Positions 40,121 to 55,751 of a stretch of 64,000 bases of DNA are shown here, piece by piece (position 1 is the first letter of the stretch; the number at the start of each line of letters is the position of its first letter). The stretch lies in contig OZ220675.1 of assembly GCA_965116325.1 (NCBI GenBank), positions 246,929 to 310,928 of the forward strand. Direction: 5' to 3'. A program made the translations under genes and the position numbers. The stretch comes from Dehalococcoidia bacterium (GTDB lineage Bacteria; Chloroflexota; Dehalococcoidia; Lucifugimonadales; JAGWBF01). Below the pieces are notes generated by a model, which saw only the letters and a list, made by a program, of their open reading frames with translations, made no database searches and had not been told where the DNA came from.

Positions 40121-40492
40121 TTATGTCGGGTCATATCGCTCAAGGATTTGCCGTAGCTGTGGGATAGTTATGTTACCCCCGGAAACGATTAGAGCTACGT
40201 TTTTACCTTTTATGTCTAGTCGATTCTTCAAGGCTCCCGCAAGGGAAGCAGCCCCCGCCGCCTCTGCCAGCGTATGGGCGCTGTCGATGAGAATTCCGAT
40301 GGCTTCCAGCATGTCTTCATCGTCGACGAGGACGAAATCGTCGAGCAGGTCCCACAGGATTTCCTGGGTGAGCTGGTAGCCTGTCGAGGTTGCCAGGCCT
40401 TCAGCCTCCGTCTCCATGGGAGATTCGGTCAGCCGGCGGTTCTTCCAGGACAAATAACCGCCCTGCGCTTGGGCCGACTGCACGGCAACCAC
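40121..40492 (-). pseudogene. 3' part of a threonine/serine dehydratase gene interrupted by an IS
   Basis: VVAVQSAQA...EAAGAASLAG...SGGN; in frame with the 5' part across the target duplication. Confidence 0.92.
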
Positions 40493-40517
40493 TTTGATAT
40501 GGGAGTTATATACTTGA

Positions 40518-40667
40518 CTAGCCATCCCCTCGTTTTCGGTCCTTCTCGACTTCCCTTAGTGGCCGTTGCTTCAGCAGCTCTTTAGCCAGGGCTTCGGGCT
40601 TCACGTTGAGCTGAGGCAATGGCGTTGTCGGCCTCCCCACCTGTTTCTTCACGCGCTTCTTTGCCAT
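40518..40667 (-). CDS. 49-aa basic small protein inside the IS (not in the ORF track)
   Basis: GGAGGG-N7-ATG; MAKKRVKKQVGRPTTPLPQLNVKPEALAKELLKQRPLREVEKDRKRGDG; the stop codon lies inside the TIR. Confidence 0.65.
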   Translation of the reverse strand: MAKKRVKKQVGRPTTPLPQLNVKPEALAKELLKQRPLREVEKDRKRGDG

Positions 40668-42157: not shown

Positions 42158-43096
42158 TCACCCCACCAAGTCGGTATACCGAAGTCGCTTGCCGACCATC
42201 CCGCCAGCGATACGGCGCATCTGGGAGATGGTGTCCAGGGGACGGGCGTTATGACGCCCTGCGAACTCGGTAACGTACCGGTCTAGGTGTTTCGGGCTTA
42301 CATGGTGAAAACTTCCCATGATGCCCCGATCCAGCAATGCCCAAAAGCTCTCTATGCCGTTCACGTGGGCCTGCTCTCTCACGTACTCACCCGCCGAGTG
42401 CTGCACGGTGATGTGCTGGCGGGCTATCCCCGTGTAGGCTGTTGCCTCATCGGTGTTGATGATGGCCGTCGGTAGAGTAACGCTTTCAACCCGCCCCTGC
42501 AATGTCTGCCCATCAGGGTTGTCCACAACCCCCGCGACCACTTTGTTGGTGGAGCGGTCAAGGACGCCGTGCACGATGGTCTTGCCAACCGAGCCCCGCC
42601 CCTGGCGATTCTTCTTCCGCCCGTGCTTGTTCTTCTCAATCCCGCCGATGGCTGTCTCATCGGACTCAACCGGCCCCTCGAACTTGGCCAGGACTTCGGG
42701 GAACGCCTTGCGGATGCGGTGAGACAGATGCCATGCCGTCTTGTAGGTGATGTCCAGGTCCCGGTGCAACTTCATGCTGCTGGTGCCCTTCAAGCCCGTG
42801 GTGAGCAGGTAGATGGAGATGGCCCAAACACGGCATCCAAGTGGGCTACCCTGCATCACGGTTCCGTGCTTCACCGAGAAGTGCTTACGGCAGTCCTTAC
42901 ACCGCAGAGGCATGGGCTTACGGCTGGGAACTTCGGCAATGCGGAGGGACCCACAGAACGGACAGGCTGGGTTGCCCTTGGGCCAGCGCACCGAGGCAAA
43001 CCAGGTCTCGGCGGCTGCATCATCGGGGAACATCTCCATCAGCTTGATTAGGCTGATGCCCTTGCGGTAGTGCTTTCCAGGAGCGTTGCTAGCCAT
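42158..43096 (-). CDS. IS1595-family DDE transposase
   Basis: Zn ribbon CPFC..CKDC, HTH region, and DET / TDE / NGIESFW catalytic motifs. Confidence 0.96.
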   Translation of the reverse strand: MASNAPGKHYRKGISLIKLMEMFPDDAAAETWFASVRWPKGNPACPFCGSLRIAEVPSRKPMPLRCKDCRKHFSVKHGTVMQGSPLGCRVWAISIYLLTTGLKGTSSMKLHRDLDITYKTAWHLSHRIRKAFPEVLAKFEGPVESDETAIGGIEKNKHGRKKNRQGRGSVGKTIVHGVLDRSTNKVVAGVVDNPDGQTLQGRVESVTLPTAIINTDEATAYTGIARQHITVQHSAGEYVREQAHVNGIESFWALLDRGIMGSFHHVSPKHLDRYVTEFAGRHNARPLDTISQMRRIAGGMVGKRLRYTDLVG

Positions 43097-43152: not shown

Positions 43153-43193
43153 GGATATCCTGTCAGTTTTGGCTAGTTTGGTGTATAATTCCC

Positions 43194-43790
43194 TTTGATA
43201 TCCGGGTTGATTGCCTTGGCGACGATGCAGGCCCCTGCGGCCCCGCTTCCCCCACCCAGAGGCACGTAGATGTGGTCAACCTCGGGGAAGTCCTCGATGA
43301 TCTCCAGGGTTTCGGTCCCGACTCCTGCGATCAGGAGAGGTTCGTTTACGGCGTGGACGTACCGGTAGCCCCTTTCGGCGGCCAAACGGGCGCACTCCTC
43401 CCGGCACTCGTCGAAGTTTTTGCCGTAGAAGACAATCTCCGCCCCTTGGTTCCGCATGGAGCGCACCTTCAGGGGGTTGGCTCCCTCGGGAAGGCAGATC
43501 ACCGCTTTTGAGCCGAACAGCCGACAGGCATAGGCGATGGACTGGCCGTGGTTGCCCGAGGAAGCGGTGATCACCCCTCTTGCCCTCTCCTCTTCGCTCA
43601 TATGGGCCAGCAGGTTCACGCCGCCCCGCACCTTGAAGGACCCCAGGGCTTGGTGGTTCTCATGCTTCAGGCGGACACTTGCTCCCAGGAGCTGGTCCAA
43701 GGCGGGATAGGAGTGGAGAGGAGTCCCGGGAACATAGGGGGATATGGTGTTCCTGGCTTCCAATACATCCTGGAGAGTAGGTCTGTTCAA
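43194..43790 (-). pseudogene. 5' part of the PLP-dependent threonine/serine dehydratase interrupted by the IS
   Basis: GSFKVRG (PLP Lys), SSGNHGQ and PLGGG motifs; 199 codons here plus 123 in the 3' part reconstitute a 322-aa ORF. Confidence 0.93.
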
Positions 43791-43912
43791 GGCGCTCCTT
43801 ACTTCGGTACATCCTCGGTTAAACCCGGTGGTTTCCAGGCTGACTGTGCTGTACAGCTTATGTTACGTCAATTGCTGATTCAACGGATGTCCACAGGATG
43901 TGCAAGACAAGC

Positions 43913-43945
43913 AAAGAGCCCGGCTACTTGATAGCCGGGCTCTTT
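43913..43945. terminator. intrinsic terminator after the oxidoreductase operon
   Basis: AAAGAGCCCGGCTA-CTTGA-TAGCCGGGCTCTTT, a perfect 14-bp stem. Confidence 0.8.
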
Positions 43946-43973
43946 AGCATTACCTGTTGCAGGCTGGGGCTGC

Positions 43974-44963
43974 TTAGTCTTCCTTGACGTTGATGGGAAT
44001 GACCCCAGGGCCCCACCAGCGCTCCCACATGTCGTCCACCTTGCCCTGGACGAACTTCGTGTCTTCCTCGGTGAAGTGGGCAAAGCGCCCCTGGCGGGAC
44101 AGGTATTCCTCGACGGGCCTGCGCTTCTTCATGCCCTTGGCGATGGCCTTGGAGGGACCGTTGAGGAACAGCTCGCCGTCCACGATCTCGTAGAGGACCC
44201 AGAGACCCGTCTCCACAGCCAGCATACCCAGCTCATGGGAGAACTTGGGATCGTAGTCCCAGCCCTTGGGGCAGGGGTCGATGCTGTGGATAAAGGTCGG
44301 GCCGCCGATGGTCAAGGCCCGGCGCAGCTTGTTGGTCATGTCCAGCCCGTAGGAGCCGCAGGAGGTGGCCAAGTACCGGCAATCCGGGTGGCCTGCCGCC
44401 AGCATGCCCACCATGTTCTTCTTCCAGCGGGTATTCATGATGCGATGCACCTTGCCCGGAGGGCTGAAGGTGGAGTTGGCGCCCCAGGGGGATGAGCCCG
44501 ACACCTGGATGTCCGTGTTGGCGTAGGACTCGTTGTCATACAGAAGCACCAGGTGGTTGTACTCTGGGTGGGTCAGTGAAGCGGATATACCGGAGAGGCC
44601 CATGTCGATCCCGCCGCCGTCTCCGCAGAAAGAGATGACGTTGATGGGTTCGTCTTGAATCTTGCCCTTTCGCATCAAGGCCTTCAGGCCAGCCGCCGTA
44701 CCGGTCGCTGCCGCACCAGAGGAACCAAGCTGGGTATGCATCCATGGCACCACCCAGGGACTGGTGTAGTAGGTCGTGTTGGCTACGTACATGCAGCCGG
44801 TGCTTCCCGTGACGATGGTGCGGTCCCCGGCGGCCTTCACCATCAGACGCATGGTCAAAGCCGATTCGCATCCCTGGCATGTCCTGTGTCCCGACGTGAA
44901 CATCTCCTCGATGGGGATGTTCTTCACACCTCGTACCTGAGGGAGATCTACCATCTGGGTCAT
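43974..44963 (-). CDS. 2-oxoacid:ferredoxin oxidoreductase beta subunit, oxalate oxidoreductase-like
   Basis: GHRTCQGC, TGCMYVANT, GDGG, DNESYANT and PCPKGW motifs. Confidence 0.92.
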   Translation of the reverse strand: MTQMVDLPQVRGVKNIPIEEMFTSGHRTCQGCESALTMRLMVKAAGDRTIVTGSTGCMYVANTTYYTSPWVVPWMHTQLGSSGAAATGTAAGLKALMRKGKIQDEPINVISFCGDGGGIDMGLSGISASLTHPEYNHLVLLYDNESYANTDIQVSGSSPWGANSTFSPPGKVHRIMNTRWKKNMVGMLAAGHPDCRYLATSCGSYGLDMTNKLRRALTIGGPTFIHSIDPCPKGWDYDPKFSHELGMLAVETGLWVLYEIVDGELFLNGPSKAIAKGMKKRRPVEEYLSRQGRFAHFTEEDTKFVQGKVDDMWERWWGPGVIPINVKED

Positions 44964-44966
44964 AAC

Positions 44967-46181
44967 CTACCTCCTTACACCTATCCACTGTTTGTCGCGG
45001 TCTATTTTACCAGTTGCCAGGGCTTCGTACATCACGTCTTTCATTTCAACGACGTTCTGGCCCCGGACTTCCCGGCCTCCCAAGCCGGCGATGAAGCTGA
45101 GGACCAATGGCCTCTTTTCCGAGTCATACAGGGCTGCCCTGATGTCATTGTACAGCACCCCGCCAAAGTCGGGTGAGCCGAAGGAGTAGTCTCTATCGAC
45201 CACTCCGATTGCCTTGAACCGGGAGAGGCATTCCTTGATCTCCTCGGTCGCGAAGGGGCGGAACCACTTTATGCGCACGAATCCTACTTTTATGCCCTGC
45301 TCCCGCATCTGCCGTACAGCCACGCGCACTGGGAGGGCCAGGGTGCCCATTCCCACGAAGACGACCTCTGCATCATCGGTCATATATTCTTCGAAGAAGG
45401 GACTGGGGGTCCCACGCCCGAAAATGTCCCTGAACTCTTCGTGAACCTCTTCGACCACCCCCTTTGCCCTGCGCATCCCGTCGTCCGTCTGCCTCCGTAT
45501 CTCCATCAGCCAGTCCTCGTTGACCTGGGGCGCCACAGTGATGGGGTTGTCAGGGTGGAGTATCTTGTCTCCCCTGTCGTAGCGAGGAAGGAACTTGTCG
45601 ACCAGGGACTTATCGGGCACGTTGGTCAGCACCTGGGAGTGGGTCAGGAAGGAACCGTCGGCGCTGATAGCGCACGGCAGGAACACCCTGGAATCCTCGG
45701 CGATACGCCATGCCATCAAGGCGGTATCAAATGCTTCCTGGGCGGTTGACACCCAGTTGAGCATCCATCCCAAGTCCCGGACAGCCAGGGCGTCGTTGTG
45801 CTCGGTGCCGAAGGCTCCCGGGTCGTCCAGGGCCCGGTTGCCGACCATTGCCACAACGGGAAGCCTCAGCCCGGCGGTCACCGCCAGGGCTTCGAAGGCG
45901 TAGAACCAGCCCACACCGCTGGAGCCGCAGAAGACCCGGGCGCCCACAGCCGAGGCGTGCTTGACGATCTCGAACTGAGAGTGTTCGCTTTCTGCAACTA
46001 TGAACTCGCAGTCCATGTCACCGTCTGCCACAAGCCTGGAGACGTACTGCATCACGGTGTCGTAGGGACGGATGGGGTACGCCGTGATCACATCGACATC
46101 AGCCATTGAGCAGGCGATGGCGATGGCTTCGCTGCCGCTGATGAGCAGCTCTTGTTCCGACTTTTGGGCTGTCGTTGCCAT
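44967..46181 (-). CDS. 2-oxoacid:ferredoxin oxidoreductase alpha subunit, oxalate oxidoreductase-like
   Basis: YPIRPY, ESEH, GSSGVG, NRALDDPG and GLGGRE motifs. Confidence 0.92.
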   Translation of the reverse strand: MATTAQKSEQELLISGSEAIAIACSMADVDVITAYPIRPYDTVMQYVSRLVADGDMDCEFIVAESEHSQFEIVKHASAVGARVFCGSSGVGWFYAFEALAVTAGLRLPVVAMVGNRALDDPGAFGTEHNDALAVRDLGWMLNWVSTAQEAFDTALMAWRIAEDSRVFLPCAISADGSFLTHSQVLTNVPDKSLVDKFLPRYDRGDKILHPDNPITVAPQVNEDWLMEIRRQTDDGMRRAKGVVEEVHEEFRDIFGRGTPSPFFEEYMTDDAEVVFVGMGTLALPVRVAVRQMREQGIKVGFVRIKWFRPFATEEIKECLSRFKAIGVVDRDYSFGSPDFGGVLYNDIRAALYDSEKRPLVLSFIAGLGGREVRGQNVVEMKDVMYEALATGKIDRDKQWIGVRR

Positions 46182-47356
46182 TAGAGCCCCTCCACTCTGG
46201 TCTGGCTGTCGGTAGCGCTACCGACCTCCGCCTGGTACTGGCCGACATGATGGAAGCCGTGAGAGCGAGGACCCTGAGCCTTATGTTTCTCCACGATGTC
46301 AGTCATCCACTTGTTGTAGCCGTCCTTGCTCTCTTGCCAGGCTTCCCATTGGCTCTCGTTGCCTTCGAACTCTGCCTCGTTGACCATGGTTATGCAGTCG
46401 GGGACGGGGCAGACATCCTCGCAGACTCCGCAACCGCAGCAGGACTCCATGTTGGAGTCGTACAGCCCATCGGGGGTCACATCGAAACAGGAGTCGGGGC
46501 AGTGCAGCCAGCACAGGGTGCACTTGATGCACGTCTCGAAGTTAACCACCGGGCGCATGGTGCGGGTGCTCCACTTCTTGAAGTAGGGGTTTCGGACCGG
46601 CTCGTACCCGCCGTCACCACCACGGAAGCCTGTACCCTGTTCCACGTTGCGCACTACCAGGGCTTCTTCCATGGTTGTCCAGCCAGGCATATCGAAGCTG
46701 AAGGGCTCCTCGGGGTTGCCCTCGCCCGGCTCCACCACGCGGGTCTCCATTCGCTCGAATGACTTCCGAGCCGAGTCCACTTTCACAGGGTTGTTCCACT
46801 GCTCCAAGATCGCCTCTTCCACTGCCTCGAGGCTCACCATTTCGGGGCACACTTTGCAAATGGCTCCCAGCACGCGGACATCGGTGTGGTCGTCCTTGTA
46901 AACCCAGAGGCCGGAGAAGCTGGTGCTGCCCTGGACTACTCCGATGTTGTAAGGAACATCCTTGGTGTGGATATCGCTTACCAGTTCGCCCCTGCCCTGT
47001 ACCGAGGTTACCAGGACAGTTCCGGTTTCCTTGGTAAGCTGGTTGATGGGCTGAAGGCCGTACCAACCCCAGGACTCCACTCCCTTGCAGAGGGTGTCGT
47101 CCACGGCGACGGTAACGTCCACGTTGTCCGCCTCGTACATCGCCAGGTTCTCTTCCAGCTCTTCCTGGGTGTCGGCCACCACGGCGAAGTACTTTGCGGG
47201 GATGCCGTTCCTCTCCGGGGAATCTCCATACCTTCCGAAGCCTATTCCAACTTTCCCTTCCTTCCGGGCTGCCAGGACGATGCCCCGGCAGATATTCCGG
47301 GCGAGGGTCTTTTGGAATATGCCCCTGTAGACCACCTCAAGCGACGTTTTGGCCAT
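46181..47356 (-). CDS. fused gamma/delta subunit with two [4Fe-4S] motifs
   Basis: Gamma-like N-domain; CIKCTLCWLHCP and CCGCGVCEDVCP. Confidence 0.9.
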   Translation of the reverse strand: MAKTSLEVVYRGIFQKTLARNICRGIVLAARKEGKVGIGFGRYGDSPERNGIPAKYFAVVADTQEELEENLAMYEADNVDVTVAVDDTLCKGVESWGWYGLQPINQLTKETGTVLVTSVQGRGELVSDIHTKDVPYNIGVVQGSTSFSGLWVYKDDHTDVRVLGAICKVCPEMVSLEAVEEAILEQWNNPVKVDSARKSFERMETRVVEPGEGNPEEPFSFDMPGWTTMEEALVVRNVEQGTGFRGGDGGYEPVRNPYFKKWSTRTMRPVVNFETCIKCTLCWLHCPDSCFDVTPDGLYDSNMESCCGCGVCEDVCPVPDCITMVNEAEFEGNESQWEAWQESKDGYNKWMTDIVEKHKAQGPRSHGFHHVGQYQAEVGSATDSQTRVEGL

Positions 47357-47434: not shown

Positions 47435-48163
47435 TTAGTCCGATGCAGAGCCCGCAAGCTCTTCCGCCGAGCCTCCGAGGACATATGCAGGCTCTACCTC
47501 GGTGATGTGGTGTTCCATGGCCGTCCTAGCCCCATCGGAGTTTCCCGAACTGACCATGTGCAGGATCTGGCGATGGGATGCCAAAGAGCGCTGGGGCCTT
47601 CCCGGCCTCTGCATTGCATGGTCCCTCGATTGGGCGAGAATATCGGACATGGTCGAGATCACCTTGACCAGCACCGGGTTTTGGGTCCCCTGGGCCAGCG
47701 CGAAATGGAAGGCGGTGTCGCCATCCACGCCAGTTCCGCCGTTGGTGATCTGAGTCTCCTGGTCTTCGATGGCTGCCAGCATGCGCTCCCAATCGTCGGC
47801 GGTGGAGCGTTCCGCCGCCAGTGAGGCGATATGGGGTTCCAGCAGGTGGCGTACCTCGAAGATGTCCTCCAGGTCTCGGTTGGCCTCGGTGAGGGTGGAA
47901 ACGATGATGGAAGCCAGGGGTTCCAGGGACTCGGAGCTTACATAGGTCCCCGATCCCGGGCGGCTGACCACCATACCTTGAAGCTCCAGCGACCGCATAG
48001 CCTCGCGCAGGGAGCCTCGCCCCACCTGGAAGCGTTCGGCGAGCTCCCTCTCCGAGGGCAGGCGGTCTCCCGGCTTCAGCACACCATCTCGTATCAGGTC
48101 CCGTATCTGGCCTGCTATATCCTGGTGTATCTTCCGGCGCTGTATTACCTGGAAATCTTCCAT
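47435..48163 (-). CDS. GntR (FadR subfamily) transcriptional regulator
   Basis: PGDRLPSERELAERFQVGRGSLREA wHTH plus an FCD domain (D.AFH, ASH). Confidence 0.95.
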   Translation of the reverse strand: MEDFQVIQRRKIHQDIAGQIRDLIRDGVLKPGDRLPSERELAERFQVGRGSLREAMRSLELQGMVVSRPGSGTYVSSESLEPLASIIVSTLTEANRDLEDIFEVRHLLEPHIASLAAERSTADDWERMLAAIEDQETQITNGGTGVDGDTAFHFALAQGTQNPVLVKVISTMSDILAQSRDHAMQRPGRPQRSLASHRQILHMVSSGNSDGARTAMEHHITEVEPAYVLGGSAEELAGSASD

Positions 48164-48201: not shown

Positions 48202-48398
48202 ATTGAGGCTTCGGAAAAAGTATCACGCTTCGTTTTGTCTGTCAATACCCCGGAGAAACTCTCAAATCGAATCGAGGAAGCCTTGTCTAAGAGGAGAGGA
48301 GCGTTACCGACCGTGGTCAGTCTCTTGGAAGGACGCGGAGTTCAGGTTACAATGGGCCGACTACATCCATCCACGGGGGACCGGAAGCAACTACACAT

Positions 48399-48716
48399 AT
48401 GGACAACGAACCCGAAAAGGTTGAACTTGAGGACCAGGGAATCCGCATAACCTGGAAGGACGGCCACCGCAGTATCTACTCCCACCGGGTGCTTAGGCTG
48501 AAGTGCCCCTGTGCCCAGTGTGTGGACGAAATGACCCATGAGCTGCGCCTCGACCCGGATACCGTCCCCATGGATGTGCGGGCAGAAGACCACTTGACGG
48601 TCGGCAACTACGCCCTGCAGTTTCTGTGGAGCGACGTCCACTACACCGGCATCTACACCTACGAGTTCCTGCGATCCACCTGCACCTGCATGGAGTGTTT
48701 GGCCGCCAGGGACTAA
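48399..48716 (+). CDS. DUF971 (GBBH-like N-terminal) domain protein
   Basis: WKDGH, LRLKCPCAQC, GNYAL and W.D...GIY motifs. Confidence 0.9.
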   Translation: MDNEPEKVELEDQGIRITWKDGHRSIYSHRVLRLKCPCAQCVDEMTHELRLDPDTVPMDVRAEDHLTVGNYALQFLWSDVHYTGIYTYEFLRSTCTCMECLAARD

Positions 48717-48999: not shown

Positions 49000-50217
49000 T
49001 CAGATGGTCCCCGAACCTCTCAAGCTTTCGATCTGCGCAGCAGAGTACCCCAGGACCTGCCCCAACACCTCTTCGTTATGTTGACCCAATGTGGGCGCCG
49101 GCCCAAACTTCTCGTCGCCCAGCTTGACGGGATTCCCGGGCATGGCATACCTGCCGGCCGTTGGATGCTCAGCCTCCACCAGCATATTCCTGTGCAGTAC
49201 CTGGGGGTCTTCGTAGGCTTCCTTGATGTTGTTGATCCGCGCGACTGGCAGCCTCTCGCCCAATAGGCCCATCCACTCATCGGCTGACTTGGCTGCGAAC
49301 GCCGATTCCAAGATCTTCTTGAGTTGATCCCAGTTCTTCCTGCGCCCGTCGATTGTTGTAAACCGGGAGTCCGTAGGGAAGTCTGCACATTCCTCAAGTT
49401 CTTCAGCCAGAACGTTGGCCAGCTCTTCGTAGAACTTCTGGGTGGCACAGTGGATCTGTAGATACCGGCCATCCCTGGTCAGGAAAGCCCCGTTGGGTAG
49501 GTTAGCTGACTGCACAGACCCACCTGCCGTCGGGATTCTTCCGCTTCCCAGGTACATTTCAGCAAGATGCCCCTGGAAAGTCAGATGAACGTCCAGCAAG
49601 CTCAGGTCCAGCTCGCACCCTTCTCCGGTGCGCTCCCTGGCCAGGAGGGCGGCAAGGATTCCCACGCTGGCCCCATAGCTGGCGCCGATGTCCGCAACGG
49701 CGAAGCCCATCACTCCCGGCTCGCCGTCGAGCTCCCCCGTTACGCTCATTGCGCCGGCTATCGCCTGGGCCACCGAGTCGAAAACGGGCCTGTCCCTGTA
49801 TGGCCCATCTTTCCCGAAACCCGATATGGAGCAGCAGATGATGGTGGGGTTTATCTTCTTCAAGGTGGCGTAGTCGACTCCCAGCCGGGCAGTTACGCCC
49901 GGGCGGAAGTTATCCAGCACCACATCTGAAATCCCGACCAGGTCGTAGAACACCTGGCGCCCCTCGTCCCGGCGCAGGTCGATAGTCATACCTTTCTTGC
50001 TGCGGTTGTAGATCATGTAGTACATGCTCTCGCCGCCGATGAAGGAAGCGCCCATGTTGCGGGCGGCCTCACCTACCTTGGGGGGTTCCACCTTGATAAC
50101 CTCCGCCCCCAGGTCGGCCATCATTCTCGATGATGCCGGACCCGAGAGGGCTTGGGACAGGTCCAGCAGACGTATGCTGCCCAGGGGCGATTTCATCGGT
50201 GCGCTCCGGTTGCCCAT
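49000..50217 (-). CDS. CoA-transferase family III (CaiB/BaiF)
   Basis: LGAEVIKVE, NRSKK, DNFRPG, ISGFG and FD motifs. Confidence 0.93.
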   Translation of the reverse strand: MGNRSAPMKSPLGSIRLLDLSQALSGPASSRMMADLGAEVIKVEPPKVGEAARNMGASFIGGESMYYMIYNRSKKGMTIDLRRDEGRQVFYDLVGISDVVLDNFRPGVTARLGVDYATLKKINPTIICCSISGFGKDGPYRDRPVFDSVAQAIAGAMSVTGELDGEPGVMGFAVADIGASYGASVGILAALLARERTGEGCELDLSLLDVHLTFQGHLAEMYLGSGRIPTAGGSVQSANLPNGAFLTRDGRYLQIHCATQKFYEELANVLAEELEECADFPTDSRFTTIDGRRKNWDQLKKILESAFAAKSADEWMGLLGERLPVARINNIKEAYEDPQVLHRNMLVEAEHPTAGRYAMPGNPVKLGDEKFGPAPTLGQHNEEVLGQVLGYSAAQIESLRGSGTI

Positions 50218-50230
50218 GATTCAGGGAAGG

Positions 50231-51112
50231 CTATGTTCCCGCCAGGAAGCTGTCCAAGGTCTGGGCCAGCTCCACCGGGGTGTGATAACCGATATCGTGG
50301 GAGCTGTCCTTGATCCAGACCACACGACTATCCTTCAGGGCCGCTTGGGCAGCGTCCACCATCATCCGGCGGGATTGGGCCAGCTCGGGGCTTCCCGTGC
50401 CTGGCCTTCTCTCGGCGGCAAGGATGATGGTAGGACACTGGACAAGGCCAAACATGGTCGATGGAGGGTTGTTCCACATGGCTTCCATGACCTGGGCATG
50501 GTTGCTGGGTTCCAGGATATCCTGGATCGACCCGTCTGGCAGCTCCCGTACCATGGTCAGGACAATGCGCTCCAGTTCATCGCTCCAGCAGTCGGAGAGC
50601 TGCTCCTTCAGTATGTCCAGGAAGTCCTCCTTGACGGGAGGGACGTTGCGGGGTCTCAGCCGGTTCTTGAAGGACTCCCATGTCGCGTCCGGCCTCATGG
50701 ACCAGTCCTGAAACCCTCCATCGATCAACGCCAGGGCCGCGATCCGGTCGGGGTGCTTGGCCGCGACGCTCAGAGCGACGTGCCCACCCCAGGAGTGCCC
50801 GCACAGGTTCACCTTCTCAAGGCCAAGCAGGTCCAGCGCCGAAACGATATCGCCGGCAAGGGTATCCCAGTCGTAGCCGGTGGACGGCTGGTCAGTCTTG
50901 CCGTGACCCCTCTGGTCGGGGGCGATGCACCTGTAGGAACCGCGCAGATGGGGAATAACCAGGTCATACCAGTGACAGGAGGATGCCAGGCCGTGGAGGG
51001 CGAGCAGGGGCAGGTTGCCCTTGTCTCCGTCGGAGGGCGGTCCCCAATCCAGGTAGTGCATCTGAATCTCCCTGGTCTGCATCCAGTTGTCTTGGGGGGC
51101 ATTGGCTCCCAT
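50231..51112 (-). CDS. alpha/beta hydrolase
   Basis: LHGL, DQRGHG and GHSWGG motifs. Confidence 0.9.
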   Translation of the reverse strand: MGANAPQDNWMQTREIQMHYLDWGPPSDGDKGNLPLLALHGLASSCHWYDLVIPHLRGSYRCIAPDQRGHGKTDQPSTGYDWDTLAGDIVSALDLLGLEKVNLCGHSWGGHVALSVAAKHPDRIAALALIDGGFQDWSMRPDATWESFKNRLRPRNVPPVKEDFLDILKEQLSDCWSDELERIVLTMVRELPDGSIQDILEPSNHAQVMEAMWNNPPSTMFGLVQCPTIILAAERRPGTGSPELAQSRRMMVDAAQAALKDSRVVWIKDSSHDIGYHTPVELAQTLDSFLAGT

Positions 51113-51157
51113 TCAGTAGCTCCTTCGAGAGTTCAAGTTACTGACTTGTCTACTGGA

Positions 51158-51634
51158 TTATATGAGGTCTGTGAAGTGGGAAGGCAAAACACCATTGTCC
51201 ACTATGGCTTTTCGCTTCTTGAAAAGCCACCGCCCCTCTTGGCGCACCAGGTGGTCTTCATACTCGCCGCAGGCATGGAACCGGGTGACTCCGTCATCGC
51301 CGGTGCGGTATATGACGAAATAGCTGTTTGCCGTGGCCTCATAATCGGACAGCGGGAAGATGGAGATGTTGGAAAGGGTGTGCAGGGTCTTACCCCTTCC
51401 GACCTGCCAGAACCCCATCAAGAATGTAACCCTCTCTTTTAGGGACTCTTTGCCGTCATCTTTGAAGAGATAGAGTCCGTTTTCCTGGTTGTTCTCGTAG
51501 GTTATGGCTGAGTAGCTTCCATCCTCGGTGAACAGGTCCAGCCATTCCCGGAACTGATGATGGTCAACCAGCCGGGCGCATTCGAACATCAGGGCGCGGA
51601 TCTGCCCTTCGTGGTTTTCGTTTCCACCTGCCAT
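51158..51634 (-). CDS. aromatic ring-hydroxylating dioxygenase beta subunit
   Basis: SnoaL-like fold (EWLDLF, G.Y.D); follows the alpha subunit. Confidence 0.85.
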   Translation of the reverse strand: MAGGNENHEGQIRALMFECARLVDHHQFREWLDLFTEDGSYSAITYENNQENGLYLFKDDGKESLKERVTFLMGFWQVGRGKTLHTLSNISIFPLSDYEATANSYFVIYRTGDDGVTRFHACGEYEDHLVRQEGRWLFKKRKAIVDNGVLPSHFTDLI

Positions 51635-51691
51635 CAGGGACTCCCCCGTGCATCCTCTATTCGAGGCCTCGCTAGAAGCAGGGACGAGGGT

Positions 51692-52906
51692 TTAGAGGGC
51701 ATGCTCGCCCATGTAGCGGCGCCATGCGTGATAGAAGCTGCGCATGGAGTATTCGTCCCGCTTGTCCCCAACCTTGCCGGGCACCTGACCACGGGACATG
51801 TTGGACCAGGGGACCGCGCTGGCGCCGAAGCCCATCTGGCAGCGAACTACAGCTTCGTTATCGTCCCCGCTGACCTTGCCCGACGATGCCTGGCTGTCCA
51901 GGGTGCGCTCCAATCGCCACTCCCGGGCTGGTCCGGACTCGCCTTTAGTTCCCAGCGCCAGCAGTTCCACCACCGTGCGGTTGACAGCTTGAGGACGGAG
52001 CACCTGGATGATGTTCATCATCCCACCCGTCATGAACTGCAGGTCCATGTTTGGGAACACGGTGATGATACGGTGGTCTTGCTTGAAGTCGACGTCGAAG
52101 GGAGGCCTCTGCCAGAGGGGGTTATCGGAGATGTTGTTCTCCAGGCCCGACGTCTCCCGCATGGCCGCAACGATGCGCTGGGGGTCCCTCTGGGGAGGGA
52201 ATCTCAGCATTCCATGTCCCTCATCCAGCCAGTAGTTGTTGCCCTGGACCTCGATGCCTCGATACCCCGTGCCCACGACGGGATGGGTGAACTCCGGGTG
52301 GTAGTTGTCGGCAAAGTTTTCGTGCCAGCTCTTCCAGTTGCCGTCGTAGGCCCACCGAACCCTTCCCAGGGACTCGGTCCCTTCCACCACCTCCCGGACG
52401 TAGGGTCCTACCTCCCCCATGTATGCTTCCAGAGGGTCTGCCTCATCGTTCAGGGATACGAATATCAGGCCCGCGAAGGTTTCCACCCGGATAGATGGAA
52501 TGTCGTACACATCCCGATTGAACTCCTGACCGTATGCGTCGGGATATGGCACTCCGATGCAGCGTCCCTCCTGGTCGAAGGTCCAACCGTGGTACATGCA
52601 TCTGAACGCTGCCCCGCAGTTGCCCTTGCGCCGGGTGGTCAAGGCGGCGCCGCGATGGGTGCACACATTGTAGAAGGCGTTGAGGGCGCCGTCCCTATTC
52701 TTGCACAGGATGATCGGCTGCTCCCCAATGGTGGCGCTCATGAAGTCCCCGGGCCCTTGAAGCTCGCTCTCGTGGGCGACGAACTGCCATGTGCGGGCGA
52801 AGACCTGGGTCATCTCGGTCTTGTAAATCTGGGGGTCCGTGTAAACGCGCCGGTCGATGACGCGGGACATATCCAGCCCTAGGTGAGGAAGTTGCTTTTC
52901 CGTCAT
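51692..52906 (-). CDS. Rieske aromatic ring-hydroxylating dioxygenase alpha subunit
   Basis: CTHRG...CMYHGW Rieske motif, ENFADNYH.EFTH and DD iron ligands. Confidence 0.95.
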   Translation of the reverse strand: MTEKQLPHLGLDMSRVIDRRVYTDPQIYKTEMTQVFARTWQFVAHESELQGPGDFMSATIGEQPIILCKNRDGALNAFYNVCTHRGAALTTRRKGNCGAAFRCMYHGWTFDQEGRCIGVPYPDAYGQEFNRDVYDIPSIRVETFAGLIFVSLNDEADPLEAYMGEVGPYVREVVEGTESLGRVRWAYDGNWKSWHENFADNYHPEFTHPVVGTGYRGIEVQGNNYWLDEGHGMLRFPPQRDPQRIVAAMRETSGLENNISDNPLWQRPPFDVDFKQDHRIITVFPNMDLQFMTGGMMNIIQVLRPQAVNRTVVELLALGTKGESGPAREWRLERTLDSQASSGKVSGDDNEAVVRCQMGFGASAVPWSNMSRGQVPGKVGDKRDEYSMRSFYHAWRRYMGEHAL

Positions 52907-52972
52907 TCGCCGGCTCCTGAAGGGACTGTTGCCGGGATCCCTGTGCCTCTTCCCAAGGTCGATGCCTGTAAG

Positions 52973-53893
52973 CTACCGGCTTGCGGGGGTCGGGACCCCG
53001 CTCTGGGAGGCGGGCACGGGTTTGTGACCCCACAGGCTGCCCGTTGTGTAGTGCTGGATGGTCCAGGTGGAATCATCCACCAAGCGACCTTCGCACCCGT
53101 ACTCCACCCGGAAACCCGAGGGGCAGAGCATATAGAAGGAGACCATGTGGTCGTTTGTGTGGCGTCCCAGGCTGGTGGCTATGGGGACGCCATTCTCCTG
53201 GCACAGGTAGTAGGTTGCGCCCACATCATCCAGAGATTGGACCTCTACCATGAAGTGGGAGATCCTCGGCCCTTGAGTGCCTGCGGCTCTGCCGGCAAGG
53301 GCCAGGGAGTGATGCCTTGGGTTGCAGTGGAAGAAGGACATCTTGAGCTGGCGGTCGGGGCGGTTGATCTCCACGAAGTCGCTGATCTTGAGTCCCAGGA
53401 CATCGCGGTAGAAGGCTGTGCCTTTTGGAAGGTCGTTGACGTTTAGGACAACGTGTCCCAAACCCATGTTACCTGTGACGAACCCCTTGATGGGACGGCG
53501 GGATTGGAAGGCTGCGTCGGGCTGCACCAGGGCACCCTGAAAGACTTCGGTCCTGAGACCATCGGGGTCTTCGAAGGAGATCATGTCCATGACCTTCCGG
53601 GAGGCCAGCTCTTCACTGGTGCCGGATCGCACCGCCACACCGGCAGCCTTGAGATTGGAATGCACTTCGTCGAAGGCTGCCTTCGTGGGCGTCTGCCATC
53701 CCACGTAGGCCACATCGTCGGCGCCGTCGGGGTGAAGGATGAACCTGTGATGGTAGTCGTCCATGCGCAGGTACAAGCTGCCATCGTCGGAGCGCTCGGA
53801 AACGACCATTCCCAGGATGTCCGAGGCGTACTCCTCCCACTTGGTAAGGTCTGCGACCCCCAGTCCCAGGTAACCAAGCTGCGTTATGCTCAT
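52973..53893 (-). CDS. type I extradiol ring-cleavage dioxygenase (BphC/HsaC-like)
   Basis: GLGHVV, CNPRHHS, HFMVE and GRHTNDHMVSFY...EYG motifs. Confidence 0.94.
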   Translation of the reverse strand: MSITQLGYLGLGVADLTKWEEYASDILGMVVSERSDDGSLYLRMDDYHHRFILHPDGADDVAYVGWQTPTKAAFDEVHSNLKAAGVAVRSGTSEELASRKVMDMISFEDPDGLRTEVFQGALVQPDAAFQSRRPIKGFVTGNMGLGHVVLNVNDLPKGTAFYRDVLGLKISDFVEINRPDRQLKMSFFHCNPRHHSLALAGRAAGTQGPRISHFMVEVQSLDDVGATYYLCQENGVPIATSLGRHTNDHMVSFYMLCPSGFRVEYGCEGRLVDDSTWTIQHYTTGSLWGHKPVPASQSGVPTPASR

Positions 53894-53920
53894 CGGATCA
53901 TCCCCCTAGCTAGCTGACCC

Positions 53921-53994
53921 AGTATATTCACCCCATTTTGGCGGTGTCAACCGAAGGGCCACAAGGCTGGAGGCCCCGTAGCCCATGCTATACT
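53921..53994. promoter_or_regulatory. divergent promoters of the aromatic cluster
   Basis: Minus strand TTGACA-N18-TATACT (53921-53950); plus strand extended -10 TGCTATACT near 53986-53994. Confidence 0.6.
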
Positions 53995-54057
53995 CCCCTA
54001 GTGGTCAGGATGTGAACAGGCATCGTATTTCCAGCTTGCGAGATTCGGGAGGTCCCA

Positions 54058-54927
54058 ATGTCCAGCATCTGGGTTGACCTGATGGGTGCGGAGGTCCACT
54101 ACTACCAAGGCCGGTACAAGACCCGGGTGATTGAGGCCGGGAGCGGCGAGCCCCTGGTGCTGATTCACGGCGTGGGTGGCCACGCCGAGGCTTACAGCCG
54201 CAACATCATGCGCCTCTCGAAGCACTACCGTGTGATGGCCATCGATCTGCTGTGGCATGGCTACTCCCAGCGAGACGGGTTTGTCGCCGGCCAGCAGATG
54301 GAGCTCTTCTCTGACCAGGTCGTGGATTTGCTGGACCAGATCGGGGCTGAAAGGGGCCACGTGGAAGGTGAGTCCCTGGGTGGCTGGGTGGGCCTGACCA
54401 TGGCTATGAACCATCCCGATCGGCTGGGTAAGCTCATACTCAACACCACCATCGGTGTAGCCTTCAAGGAGACCGCTCCCAGGGAGGACCGGGCCGGAGG
54501 GCGCAGCCTGTTGGCATCCAGGTCCATGGCCGCCATAGAAGATCCAACCAAGGAGACCATCCGTCAGCGTCTCGAATGGCTCATGGCATCGCCCGACCGG
54601 GTTACCGATGAGCTGGTTGAGACCAGGCTGAAGATATACAGCGACCCCGAAGCCAAGGAGTCCCTGGGGCGGGTGTTTGCCAACTCATTTGGTCAGGGCA
54701 AGTCATCCCGGCGCTTTTCCGAAGAGGAGCTGAGCAACATCAAGGCGCCGACCTTGGTGCTATGGTCCGAGAAAAACCCAGGCACCGGCCCGGATGTGGG
54801 GCGGTACCTGGCCACGCTGATACCTGGGGCGCAATGTTATGTAATGCAGGATGCAGCCCACTGGCCCCAGTGGGAACATCCCGAGGAACATGACAAGGTG
54901 GTGCTGGACTTCCTAAAGGGCAGCTAA
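54058..54927 (+). CDS. meta-cleavage product hydrolase-like alpha/beta hydrolase (MhpC/BphD-like)
   Basis: GESLGG and AHWPQWEHP motifs. Confidence 0.85.
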   Translation: MSSIWVDLMGAEVHYYQGRYKTRVIEAGSGEPLVLIHGVGGHAEAYSRNIMRLSKHYRVMAIDLLWHGYSQRDGFVAGQQMELFSDQVVDLLDQIGAERGHVEGESLGGWVGLTMAMNHPDRLGKLILNTTIGVAFKETAPREDRAGGRSLLASRSMAAIEDPTKETIRQRLEWLMASPDRVTDELVETRLKIYSDPEAKESLGRVFANSFGQGKSSRRFSEEELSNIKAPTLVLWSEKNPGTGPDVGRYLATLIPGAQCYVMQDAAHWPQWEHPEEHDKVVLDFLKGS

Positions 54928-54935
54928 AGCCCTGC

Positions 54936-55751
54936 CTAGTCGGCCAGGGCCGGCTCCAAGCTCCCTTCCGTTGAAGCCCCGACCCCGTTGGCCAGCAGGA
55001 ACTGGTGCACCGCCTGGTTGAAGATCTCCGGCTGCTCGTAGTGGGTAGAGTGTCCCGAGTGGGGCACCTCCACCAGCGTTGACCCCGGTATCCTGCTGTG
55101 CATGCCCCGGATCACGTCGGGGGGAAACAGGACATCCTCCAGCCCAACGACGAACAGCAACGGTATGCCATATCCTGTCATGTCTTCAGGGCTGGGCCCC
55201 TGGGGGAATGCGCCGGGCAGGTTGCCCCGGTTGACCATGTTGAAGCTGTTTAGCTGGGTATACAGCTCGGTCATGGCGGGTTCACGGACTCGAAAGCCGT
55301 TGGACAGCACCCGGTCCAGCTGGGACAGGTTGCTGGTGTCCCTCCGCACCTCGTCCATGCGCGCTTCAAGTTCCGGGGGCAGGACCATCCCGCCCAGCGT
55401 GTCGCCGAGCACCAGCGCCCGCACTCTCTCCGGGTTCGTCTGGGTGAACAGCCCGCAGGTGGACCCGCCCATGGACTGGGCGACCAGCACCACCTGCTCA
55501 ACGTCCAGGTGGTCAACCAGGGCCTTCATGTCTGCGGCAAAGGCGGCCCTTCCAGGTCCGTCTTCCCTGTCCCTGGAGTTTCCGAAACCCCGGTGGTCGA
55601 AGGTGACCACCCTGTACCATTGTGAGAAGTAGGAGACCTGCTGGAACCAGTTGGAGTGGTTGCCCCCTATGCCGTGGGCAAAGACCATGGTGGGGCCTTC
55701 TCCCTTTACTTCATAGTAGAGATCGAAGCCGTCAATGTTCACGGTTGCCAT
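54936..55751 (-). CDS. alpha/beta hydrolase
   Basis: AHG, DHRGFG, AQSMGG and GHS motifs; preceded by a consensus TTGACA-N18-TATAAT promoter (55781-55810). Confidence 0.9.
   Translation of the reverse strand: MATVNIDGFDLYYEVKGEGPTMVFAHGIGGNHSNWFQQVSYFSQWYRVVTFDHRGFGNSRDREDGPGRAAFAADMKALVDHLDVEQVVLVAQSMGGSTCGLFTQTNPERVRALVLGDTLGGMVLPPELEARMDEVRRDTSNLSQLDRVLSNGFRVREPAMTELYTQLNSFNMVNRGNLPGAFPQGPSPEDMTGYGIPLLFVVGLEDVLFPPDVIRGMHSRIPGSTLVEVPHSGHSTHYEQPEIFNQAVHQFLLANGVGASTEGSLEPALAD

Follow-up and report, generated by a model that had tools for sequence, protein, structure and literature searches.

What does the three-gene oxidoreductase encoded at positions 43974–47356 of a 64-kb stretch of a SAR202-type Dehalococcoidia genome oxidize? 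The stretch (contig OZ220675.1, positions 246,929 to 310,928; hereafter the window) belongs to a genome of 2.37 Mb in a single contig, in which the alpha subunit of the enzyme is annotated as "pyruvate ferredoxin oxidoreductase alpha subunit". An earlier note, made from the sequence alone, had instead taken the enzyme for a relative of oxalate oxidoreductase (OOR) with a variant active-site loop. On its sequence, the enzyme is a three-subunit 2-oxoacid:ferredoxin oxidoreductase (OFOR) of the Arg31 lineage, named after the Arg of a YPIRP motif in OOR. Our best reading, to which we assign a probability of about 0.55, is that it oxidizes oxalate without coenzyme A (CoA). Two states of the active-site loop recur throughout: RALDDPGAF, as in the window (A-type), and RTLDPPGDF, as in OOR of Moorella thermoacetica (D-type).

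Subunit Architecture and Family Placement

The gene order given earlier, delta (with a fused gamma-like domain), alpha, and beta, was confirmed as three minus-strand open reading frames (ORFs), the domain III–V fusion coming first:

46181..47356, minus strand: delta ORF, 391 aa; domain III (gamma-like, residues ~1-210) fused to domain V (ferredoxin-like); best PDB match 5c4i_B
44967..46181, minus strand: alpha ORF, 404 aa; domains I-II; best PDB match 5c4i_A
43974..44963, minus strand: beta ORF, 329 aa; domain VI; best PDB match 5c4i_C

In a sequence search of the PDB, the best solved structure for all three subunits was M. thermoacetica OOR, with E-values of 1.1e-100 for alpha (44% identity), 3.2e-82 for beta (45% identity), and 2.3e-19 for delta. 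The four-subunit pyruvate:ferredoxin oxidoreductase (PFOR) of Methanosarcina, 9bt4, was a distant second (E 2.3e-64 and 34% identity for alpha). The OOR equivalog models of NCBIfam also ranked first for each subunit, yet all scores were below the cut-offs: 388.6 bits against 500 for alpha, 331.7 against 590 for beta, and 83.9 against 230 for delta. The proposed OOR-like identity thus stood as far as the best matches of all subunits are concerned, and has to be narrowed, as the enzyme falls short of the equivalog cut-offs and lies in a sister clade, described below.

The labels used in databases and in SAR202 papers would make the enzyme an ordinary CoA-dependent pyruvate or branched-chain 2-oxoacid:ferredoxin oxidoreductase. 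Apart from the source annotation, this assignment is favored by the listing of PFOR in SAR202 (PMC5864207), by the PdhR/LldR-like character of the adjacent regulator, and by the score of the PorA_Arch model on alpha (350.8 bits), which is close to that of the OOR model. However, the PorA_Arch cut-off is 550 bits, the PorB model reached only 269.3 bits on beta against a cut-off of 405, and the curated Por/Vor models (PorA, PorB, VorB, and others) were all far under their cut-offs. In addition, the window enzyme has Arg in place of the YPITP Thr, the residue that binds the carboxylate of pyruvate (PMC5020499), and the title of Pierce et al. 2017, as cited in PMC13768988, states that pyruvate suicide-inactivates Moorella OOR. 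Together with the state of domain III and the position in the trees, given below, these data make a pyruvate or branched-chain enzyme unlikely.

All cofactor ligands were in place, and all three reading frames were intact. Delta carries two CxxCxxCxxxCP motifs (residues 276-287 and 306-317), Cys29, Cys32, Cys57, and Cys231 of beta correspond to the ligands of the proximal [4Fe-4S] cluster, and GDGG (residues 114-117) with DNESYANTDIQ (residues 143-153) of beta forms the motif for thiamine pyrophosphate (TPP) and Mg. Judging from these motifs, alpha and beta are predicted to form the TPP site and beta to hold the proximal cluster, with delta supplying two further clusters toward an external low-potential acceptor. 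The enzyme thus has the OOR-type architecture of three subunits, a domain III–V fusion, and three [4Fe-4S] sites.

Domain III of delta was degenerate. The only Pfam match in delta was Fer4_21, and no match to the POR domain (PF01558) was found at E <= 1e-3, whereas the KorA-type paralogues of the same genome, which served as positive controls, scored 63.9 and 109.7 bits. The conserved stretch VEVVYRGIFQKTLARNI stands in place of the Gly-rich GxGGQG loop, which reads GGEAGQG or GEGGQG near the N-terminus of the genome's own OFOR paralogues. It hardly varies between SAR202 and Acidobacteria, in which delta as a whole is 57-64% identical, and Moorella OOR delta is likewise degenerate at the same position of the alignment. 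An AlphaFold2 model of delta, with a moderate mean confidence (pLDDT 63), retrieved OOR delta chains first in Foldseek (E 6.5e-17) and PorC gamma subunits next, and the modeled fold of domain III is still gamma-like. Moorella OOR needs no CoA (PMC5020499), and the degenerate domain III fits a CoA-independent reaction, although it does not prove one. The missing POR signature and Gly-rich loop are also at odds with an ordinary PFOR.

Delta further carries a C-terminal extension of about 60 residues (window 46181-46363, residues ~332-391) that is absent from Moorella OOR delta. Its residues N333, Q336, W340, Y347, W350, R364, H366, G367, and Y374 are invariant across phyla; partner docking or oxygen shielding would be a guess at its role.

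Active-Site Residues and Their Covariation

The motifs reported earlier for alpha (YPIRPY and the loop R-A-L-D-D-P-G-A-F) and beta (CMYVANT and DNESYANT) were all found in place:

46062-46079, minus strand: alpha YPIRPY, residues 35-40; Arg38 corresponds to OOR Arg31
45810-45836, minus strand: alpha RALDDPGAF, residues 116-124; aligned to 5c4i_A
44775-44798, minus strand: beta GCMYVANT, residues 56-63; motif search
44505-44537, minus strand: beta DNESYANTDIQ, residues 143-153; motif search

In OOR, Arg31 of alpha gives rise to a unique YPIRP motif and, together with Asp116 of alpha, is central to a bait-and-switch mechanism (PMC5020499). The OOR loop R-x-L-D-P-P-G-D-F, as given in the earlier note, agreed with R109-T-L-D-P-P-G-D116-F117 of 5c4i_A. 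The window loop, R116-A-L-D119-D120-P-G-A123-F124, aligned without gaps to R109-T-L-D112-P113-P-G-D116-F117, so that Asp116 is replaced by Ala123 and Pro113 by Asp120, and the equivalents of Arg109 and Phe117 (Arg116 and Phe124) are kept and are invariant in the A-type clade. The apparent replacement of the switch-loop Asp by Ala was therefore borne out by the alignment, but it is not peculiar to this gene, being one of three clade-defining, co-varying changes. One of the others, in beta, was absent from the earlier observations: Asn149 of beta corresponds to OOR Asn143, and two residues further on, Asp151 takes the place of the Gly145 found in OOR and PFOR (NTG to NTD). We take Asn143 of OOR beta and Asn996 of Desulfovibrio PFOR to be substrate-site residues.

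The alpha loop state was compared with the beta state in 243 fetched loci. RALDDPGAF was paired with DNESYANTDIQ in 83 of 83 loci (80 from SAR202, two from Gammaproteobacteria metagenome-assembled genomes (MAGs), and one from Acidobacteriota), and RTLDPPGDF with DNE(Q/S)YANTGIQ in 77 of 77, as well as in Moorella, with no exceptions either way. The full set of alpha P113D, alpha D116A, and beta Gly145Asp (OOR numbering) was accordingly present in 83/83 A-type loci and 0/77 D-type loci. Altogether, 56 alpha and 57 beta positions were fixed differently between the two types, including alpha T34D, T110A, P113D, and D116A and beta 145. The variant features were invariant in 80/80 SAR202 relatives, the best 80 of 489 species-level genomes with a close alpha relative (here and in all later SAR202 counts out of 80), in which alpha identity was 73-98%; beta NTD was invariant in 81 SAR202 sequences. 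A search of genomes for the P0129 subtype, with the loop RALDDPGNF, returned only two A-type loci from Gammaproteobacteria.

Because the set is fixed and co-varies across many genomes, the absence of Asp116 is a signature of the clade and no lesion. The acid function of the switch loop has probably been relocated to alpha Asp120 and beta Asp151, possibly in a fixed position, and not lost; alternatively, the pocket may have been adapted to another group adjoining C2.

Phylogeny and Distribution

A search of 1.8 billion cluster representatives yielded 429 proteins at E <= 1e-30. Two trees were built, the first from 114 full-length representatives and the second from 73 rows sampled from all fetched loci, with support given as the Shimodaira–Hasegawa-like approximate likelihood ratio (SH-aLRT). 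All Arg31 (YPIRP) sequences formed one clade, with support of 100 and 99 in the two trees, nested among YPITP enzymes in the first. Within this clade, the 114-representative tree contained a long basal branch with the loop RVLDQPGSF, a D-type clade including Moorella OOR (support 99), and its sister clade (support 96), consisting of one RALDDPGNF representative and the A-type sequences. The A-type clade, which holds the window, had a support of 100 in both trees, and the second tree agreed in giving one A-type clade (100) and one D-type clade (99). The window thus lies outside the clade of the characterized OOR, A- and D-types join only at the Arg31 node, and each of the two active-site states arose only once, according to the tree. 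The phylogenetic check proposed earlier consequently placed the window within the Arg31 clade (SH-aLRT 99-100), well apart from YPITP sequences, and no clustering with POR or VOR was observed; the grouping with OOR, apart from all YPITP sequences, counts further against a PFOR.

The best 80 of the 489 species-level genomes with a close alpha relative were all MAGs of Dehalococcoidia/Chloroflexota, many of them from sponge metagenomes. The gene set was present as one copy in 19 of 28 genomes of the window's own family and absent from 9, and 10 of 201 genomes in an even sample of the class carried it. In soil Acidobacteriota, too, A-type enzymes were common, with at least 506 matching stretches compared with 408 for the D-type. 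The A-type active-site state is shared across at least three phyla. In several genomes, two A-type paralogues with a mutual identity of about 76% were present.

The absence of the gene set from 9/28 family genomes and the replacement of Asp116 by Ala could point to a decaying or inactive relic that has lost its catalytic Asp. This is very improbable, in view of three intact frames, the presence of every cofactor ligand, the retention of the same state in at least three phyla, and the conservation across the 80 species-level genomes, with identities of 72-100% for beta and 73-98% for alpha and no variation in the motifs. The enzyme is thus real and conserved, and it is probably active.

Operon Context and Substrate

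The operons of soil Acidobacteriota were surveyed at 80 A-type and 80 D-type loci (the latter P0127, L088-L167). The A-type order was a GntR/FCD regulator (73-74/80), delta, alpha, beta, and an MFS transporter (60/80). This transporter scored 467 bits on the TIGR04259 oxalate/formate antiporter model, whose cut-off is 335, and 322 bits on an L-lactate transporter model, and the same transporter family adjoined 44 of 80 D-type operons. Since A- and D-type operons share regulator and transporter families, they most simply share a substrate class, and the context of the soil A-type operons favors oxalate as the substrate.

The window's genome encodes no protein above the cut-offs for Oxc or Frc, so that the OFOR would be its sole candidate oxalate-degrading enzyme. 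For pyruvate or 2-oxoglutarate the genome would not need the A-type enzyme, since it also encodes two KorA-type 2-oxoacid:acceptor oxidoreductases that pass the cut-off, as well as a third OFOR. Another atypical OFOR made up of three genes was noted in the same genome (G000:C1:903293-906874, locus L084). Its alpha subunit has FFPIGPS, with Gly for the Thr of YPITP, and the loop RALEPPAVV, its relatives form a cluster of their own (P0258), and its gamma/delta-like subunit retains the Pfam POR domain.

Several observations weigh against oxalate. Asp116, which has been called important for OOR catalysis, is absent, and the extra acidic residues of the active site (alpha T34D and P113D and beta G145D) do not obviously favor a dianion. 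All three subunits score under the OOR equivalog cut-offs, and no account of the A-type clade was found in the literature searched. The oxalate/formate antiporter (TIGR04259, OxlT) equivalog was found in 0 of 31 SAR202 relatives, and the SAR202 neighbors suggest other sources of 2-oxoacids, namely a flavin mononucleotide (FMN)-dependent 2-hydroxyacid oxidase, a ThiO-like flavin adenine dinucleotide (FAD) oxidase, and a pyridoxal phosphate (PLP)-dependent dehydratase. A- and D-type operons, moreover, occurred together in 3 of 13 genomes checked, and an A-type operon stood beside a D-type alpha/beta pair at three distinct loci of Acidobacteriota (L099:685-8381; L144:45-8384, the same as L168; and L216). 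This coexistence and adjacency suggests that the two types are not simply redundant.

Such observations lend themselves to an alternative that we regard as possible and clearly less probable than oxalate: an enzyme of the same lineage might act on a small 2-oxoacid other than oxalate that bears a polar or anionic substituent beside C2, such as glyoxylate, oxamate, hydroxypyruvate, mesoxalate, or sulfopyruvate. Glyoxylate, for example, would yield formate and CO2 after hydrolysis of formyl-TPP. Whatever the substrate, the new aspartates would serve as general base or hydrogen-bond acceptor. The coexistence of both types in one genome, sometimes side by side, and the large number of positions fixed differently between them, including the switch loop and beta 145, are in favor of such a substrate, and without Asp116 a reaction lacking the second decarboxylation would be chemically attractive. 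On the other hand, the equivalents of Arg31, Arg109, and Phe117 are all kept, and the soil A-type operons share their oxalate/formate-antiporter and regulator families with the OOR-type operons. The SAR202 neighborhood, described below, can be read both ways.

Proposed Reaction

If the substrate is oxalate, Arg38 and Arg116 (OOR Arg31 and Arg109) would draw in and hold this small anionic 2-oxoacid. TPP would then attack the substrate, CO2 would be released, and two electrons would travel via the three clusters, and the leftover one-carbon unit would depart, without CoA, as another molecule of CO2. This last step is driven in Moorella OOR by a mobile loop that swings Asp116 in. The A-type, with Ala at this position, has gained alpha Asp120 earlier in the same loop and beta Asp151, to which the acid function has probably moved, as the alignments suggest. 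The role of such an enzyme in aerobic SAR202 would be the removal of oxalate, or a close analogue, made in the cell during the oxidation of organic matter, with reduced ferredoxin as a yield.

Comparison with Known Systems

The only characterized member of the Arg31 lineage is Moorella OOR (EC 1.2.7.10; PDB 5C4I, 5EXD, and 5EXE; NCBIfam NF045790-NF045792), and the literature searched contained a characterized OOR from one anaerobic acetogen only. The window enzyme resembles it in its three subunits with the domain split I-II, VI, and III-V fusion, its three [4Fe-4S] sites, the Arg of YPIRP, the Arg109 and Phe117 equivalents, CMYVANT and DNESYANT of beta, and a degenerate domain III in which the Gly-rich loop is missing, and OOR was the best sequence and fold match throughout. 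It differs in its alpha/beta identity of only 44-45%, its sister-clade position, its scores under the equivalog cut-offs, the replacements of Asp116 by Ala, Pro113 by Asp, alpha Thr34 by Asp, and beta Gly145 by Asp, and the C-terminal extension of delta. Its host, too, is an aerobic marine heterotroph and not an anaerobic acetogen.

The Asp116-type homologues of soil Acidobacteriota belong to the same Arg31 clade, have a homologous GntR/FCD regulator, and have the oxalate/formate-antiporter-like family in common with the soil A-type operons. Unlike the A-type, they keep RTLDPPGDF and beta NTG, and in 74 of 80 loci a 610-aa GltD/NfnB-like flavoprotein (Fer4_20 and Pyr_redox_2), not a III–V subunit, precedes alpha/beta (e.g., L144:4141-8384). 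This suggests that the soil D-type OOR is wired to NAD(P), not ferredoxin, and the difference between A- and D-types may accordingly lie in the electron acceptor, the substrate, or both. The soil D-type beta was also longer, at 398 aa.

The four-subunit PFOR of Methanosarcina acetivorans (9BT4), the second-best PDB match, shares the overall fold and the TPP and cluster chemistry. It differs in the Thr of YPITP, a gamma subunit that binds CoA and carries the Pfam POR signature, separate gamma and delta genes, and an alpha identity of 34%.

Transcription Unit, Regulator, and Operator

The regulator, delta, alpha, and beta genes form one compact unit on the minus strand of the window, between 48226 and 43912, which includes the following features in addition to the enzyme genes:

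47435..48163, minus strand: transcription regulator of the GntR/FadR family (FCD-domain type), with which the unit begins; from NCBIfam and the reading of the start codon
48191..48201, minus strand: palindromic FadR/LldR-PdhR-type putative operator TGGTCAGACCA, 28 nt upstream of the likely regulator ATG, in the region divergent from a DUF971 gene
43912..43946, minus strand: intrinsic-terminator-like hairpin with a 16-bp stem, first base 28 nt past the beta stop

A gap of 78 nt separates the end of the regulator gene (47435) from the delta start, the delta stop and alpha start have one base in common (TAATG), and the beta ATG lies 3 nt past the TAG stop of alpha, with a Shine-Dalgarno sequence, AAGGAGG, within the last codons of alpha. 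Delta, alpha, and beta are thus translationally coupled. The hairpin is predicted to close the unit and to set apart the PLP-dependent dehydratase gene downstream.

The top NCBIfam matches of the regulator were NanR, LldR, PdhR, and GlcC, with every score below cut-off. Its start is likely the ATG at 48163, and not the GTG at 48226 taken by the ORF finder, because the latter would put the operator within the coding frame. The palindrome TGGTCAGACCA, which has a standard half-site arrangement of the FadR subfamily, occurred as a single exact copy in the 64-kb window, so that a search of the window for other regulon members through further copies gave none. Among the SAR202 loci, TGGTC(A/T)GACCA was present once, just upstream of the regulator start, in 33 of the 35 loci with the regulator and in none of the loci without it. 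Two extra copies in locus L016 were considered as regulon sites and set aside as uninformative, as they lie inside an RCC1-repeat gene. A TTGACA is found 39 nt upstream; a promoter is assigned here only tentatively, given a weak -10 element and a spacer of 15 nt.

Homologues of the regulator adjoined 35/80 SAR202 A-type and 65-67/80 soil D-type operons, besides the soil A-type operons mentioned above. These features are consistent with an autoregulated LldR/PdhR-like repressor that would bind TGGTCAGACCA, set the expression of the unit, and presumably sense a small carboxylate.

SAR202 Neighborhood

The following genes lie near the unit in the window:

48399..48716, plus strand (divergent): small stand-alone DUF971/GBBH-like_N protein with a Cys-rich motif (Pfam PF06155, E 5.7e-22)
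49000..50217, minus strand: family III CoA-transferase, upstream (NCBIfam)
43790..43173 (N-part) and 40525..40121 (C-part), minus strand: PLP-dependent Ser/Thr-dehydratase-like gene, split by a ~2.7-kb insert

Delta, alpha, and beta were always together in the SAR202 loci, and their neighbors varied by subclade. In the window's subclade (~20 loci), the family III CoA-transferase and the divergent DUF971 gene lie upstream, followed by the regulator with its operator, and the dehydratase-like gene lies downstream. In a larger subclade (~50 loci, e.g., L022:285-16536), the operon lacks the regulator and is followed by a 183-aa unknown protein and one or two FMN-dependent 2-hydroxyacid oxidases; the divergent side encodes an ALS/Xsc-like TPP enzyme, DUF971, a ThiO-like FAD oxidase, a 173-aa unknown protein, and a 760-aa double family III CoA-transferase. 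Past the FMN oxidases, on the opposite strand, an alpha/beta hydrolase, a TenA-family protein, and a PIG-L deacetylase were observed.

The FMN oxidase, FAD oxidase, and dehydratase have in common that they all yield 2-oxoacids, and none of them is diagnostic. For a 2-oxoacid other than oxalate speak the ~50 operons that run into FMN oxidases and face the ThiO-like and ALS/Xsc-like enzymes, and the dehydratase downstream in the window's own subclade. Against it, the neighbors vary by subclade while the active site is invariant, and in the window the terminator cuts off the dehydratase. The FMN oxidase, moreover, was equally near to lactate and glycolate oxidases and has Ser at the position of Trp108 of spinach glycolate oxidase; without the Trp typical of that enzyme, a dedicated feed from glycolate to glyoxylate is unsupported.

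Of three candidate assignments, one was not supported and two were rejected. The downstream FMN oxidase was not supported as a glycolate oxidase, given the Ser noted above. The neighboring TPP enzyme was rejected as an oxalyl-CoA decarboxylase, its Oxc/HACL scores being no better than those for acetolactate synthase, BbmA, and glyoxylate carboligase. The dehydratase was rejected as a member of the window's operon, because a terminator lies between and most loci lack the gene. Within the insert that splits it lie a transposase of the IS1595 family (43096..42158) and two ORFs that gave no Pfam match. Relatives such as L003 and L004 have an unbroken, intact copy of the gene.

The DUF971 gene is a recurrent neighbor in SAR202, where 62 of 80 loci have it upstream of the OFOR genes at a distance of no more than a few kb. 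None of the soil loci, whether A- or D-type, had it nearby. The CoA-transferase at 49000..50217 scored 231-250 bits on the succinate-glutarate, formyl-CoA, and oxalate CoA-transferase models, all below cut-off, and was syntenic in the ~20 closest loci with 61-93% identity. SAR202 genomes carry many paralogues of family III CoA-transferases (PMC5395668), and a functional tie of this one to the OFOR is uncertain.

The earlier statement that the host also encodes O2-dependent dioxygenases was correct, with Rieske and extradiol genes a few kb away. The region 49000-55751 encodes the alpha and beta subunits of a Rieske dioxygenase, together with an extradiol dioxygenase and three alpha/beta hydrolases. 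A gene for a ferredoxin or a reductase was not found within it, and its synteny was confined to the three closest genomes (L001, L003, and L004).

Implications

Nothing relevant on OOR in SAR202 or Chloroflexi was found in the literature searched, in which "YPIRP" occurred only in a paper on a Sulfolobus OFOR and the SAR202 papers found mentioned PFOR or OGOR only. The A-type genes, which aerobic bacteria carry in hundreds of species-level genomes, may represent an annotation gap: they are labeled PFOR, and SAR202 papers take them to stand for "anaerobic pyruvate oxidation". Surveys of oxalate degradation limited to frc/oxc would overlook them.

The mechanism of OOR has been explained via Asp116, and a sister clade that lacks Asp116 but has a co-varying replacement offers a test of that mechanism. 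As a tentative extension, less probable still than the alternative 2-oxoacid considered above, the A-type might constitute a distinct, undescribed class of oxidoreductase that uses oxalate via fixed acids (alpha Asp120 and beta Asp151) or another C2 acid (glyoxylate or oxamate). It would then serve as an oxygen-tolerant C2-acid sink in abundant aerobes, namely SAR202 of the ocean and sponges and soil Acidobacteriota, with low-potential electrons passing to ferredoxin-dependent oxygenases.

Oxalate and glyoxylate are common end products of the photochemical and oxidative breakdown of organic matter. If the substrate of the A-type enzyme is indeed oxalate or glyoxylate, the finding would bear on the final oxidation of recalcitrant carbon by SAR202.

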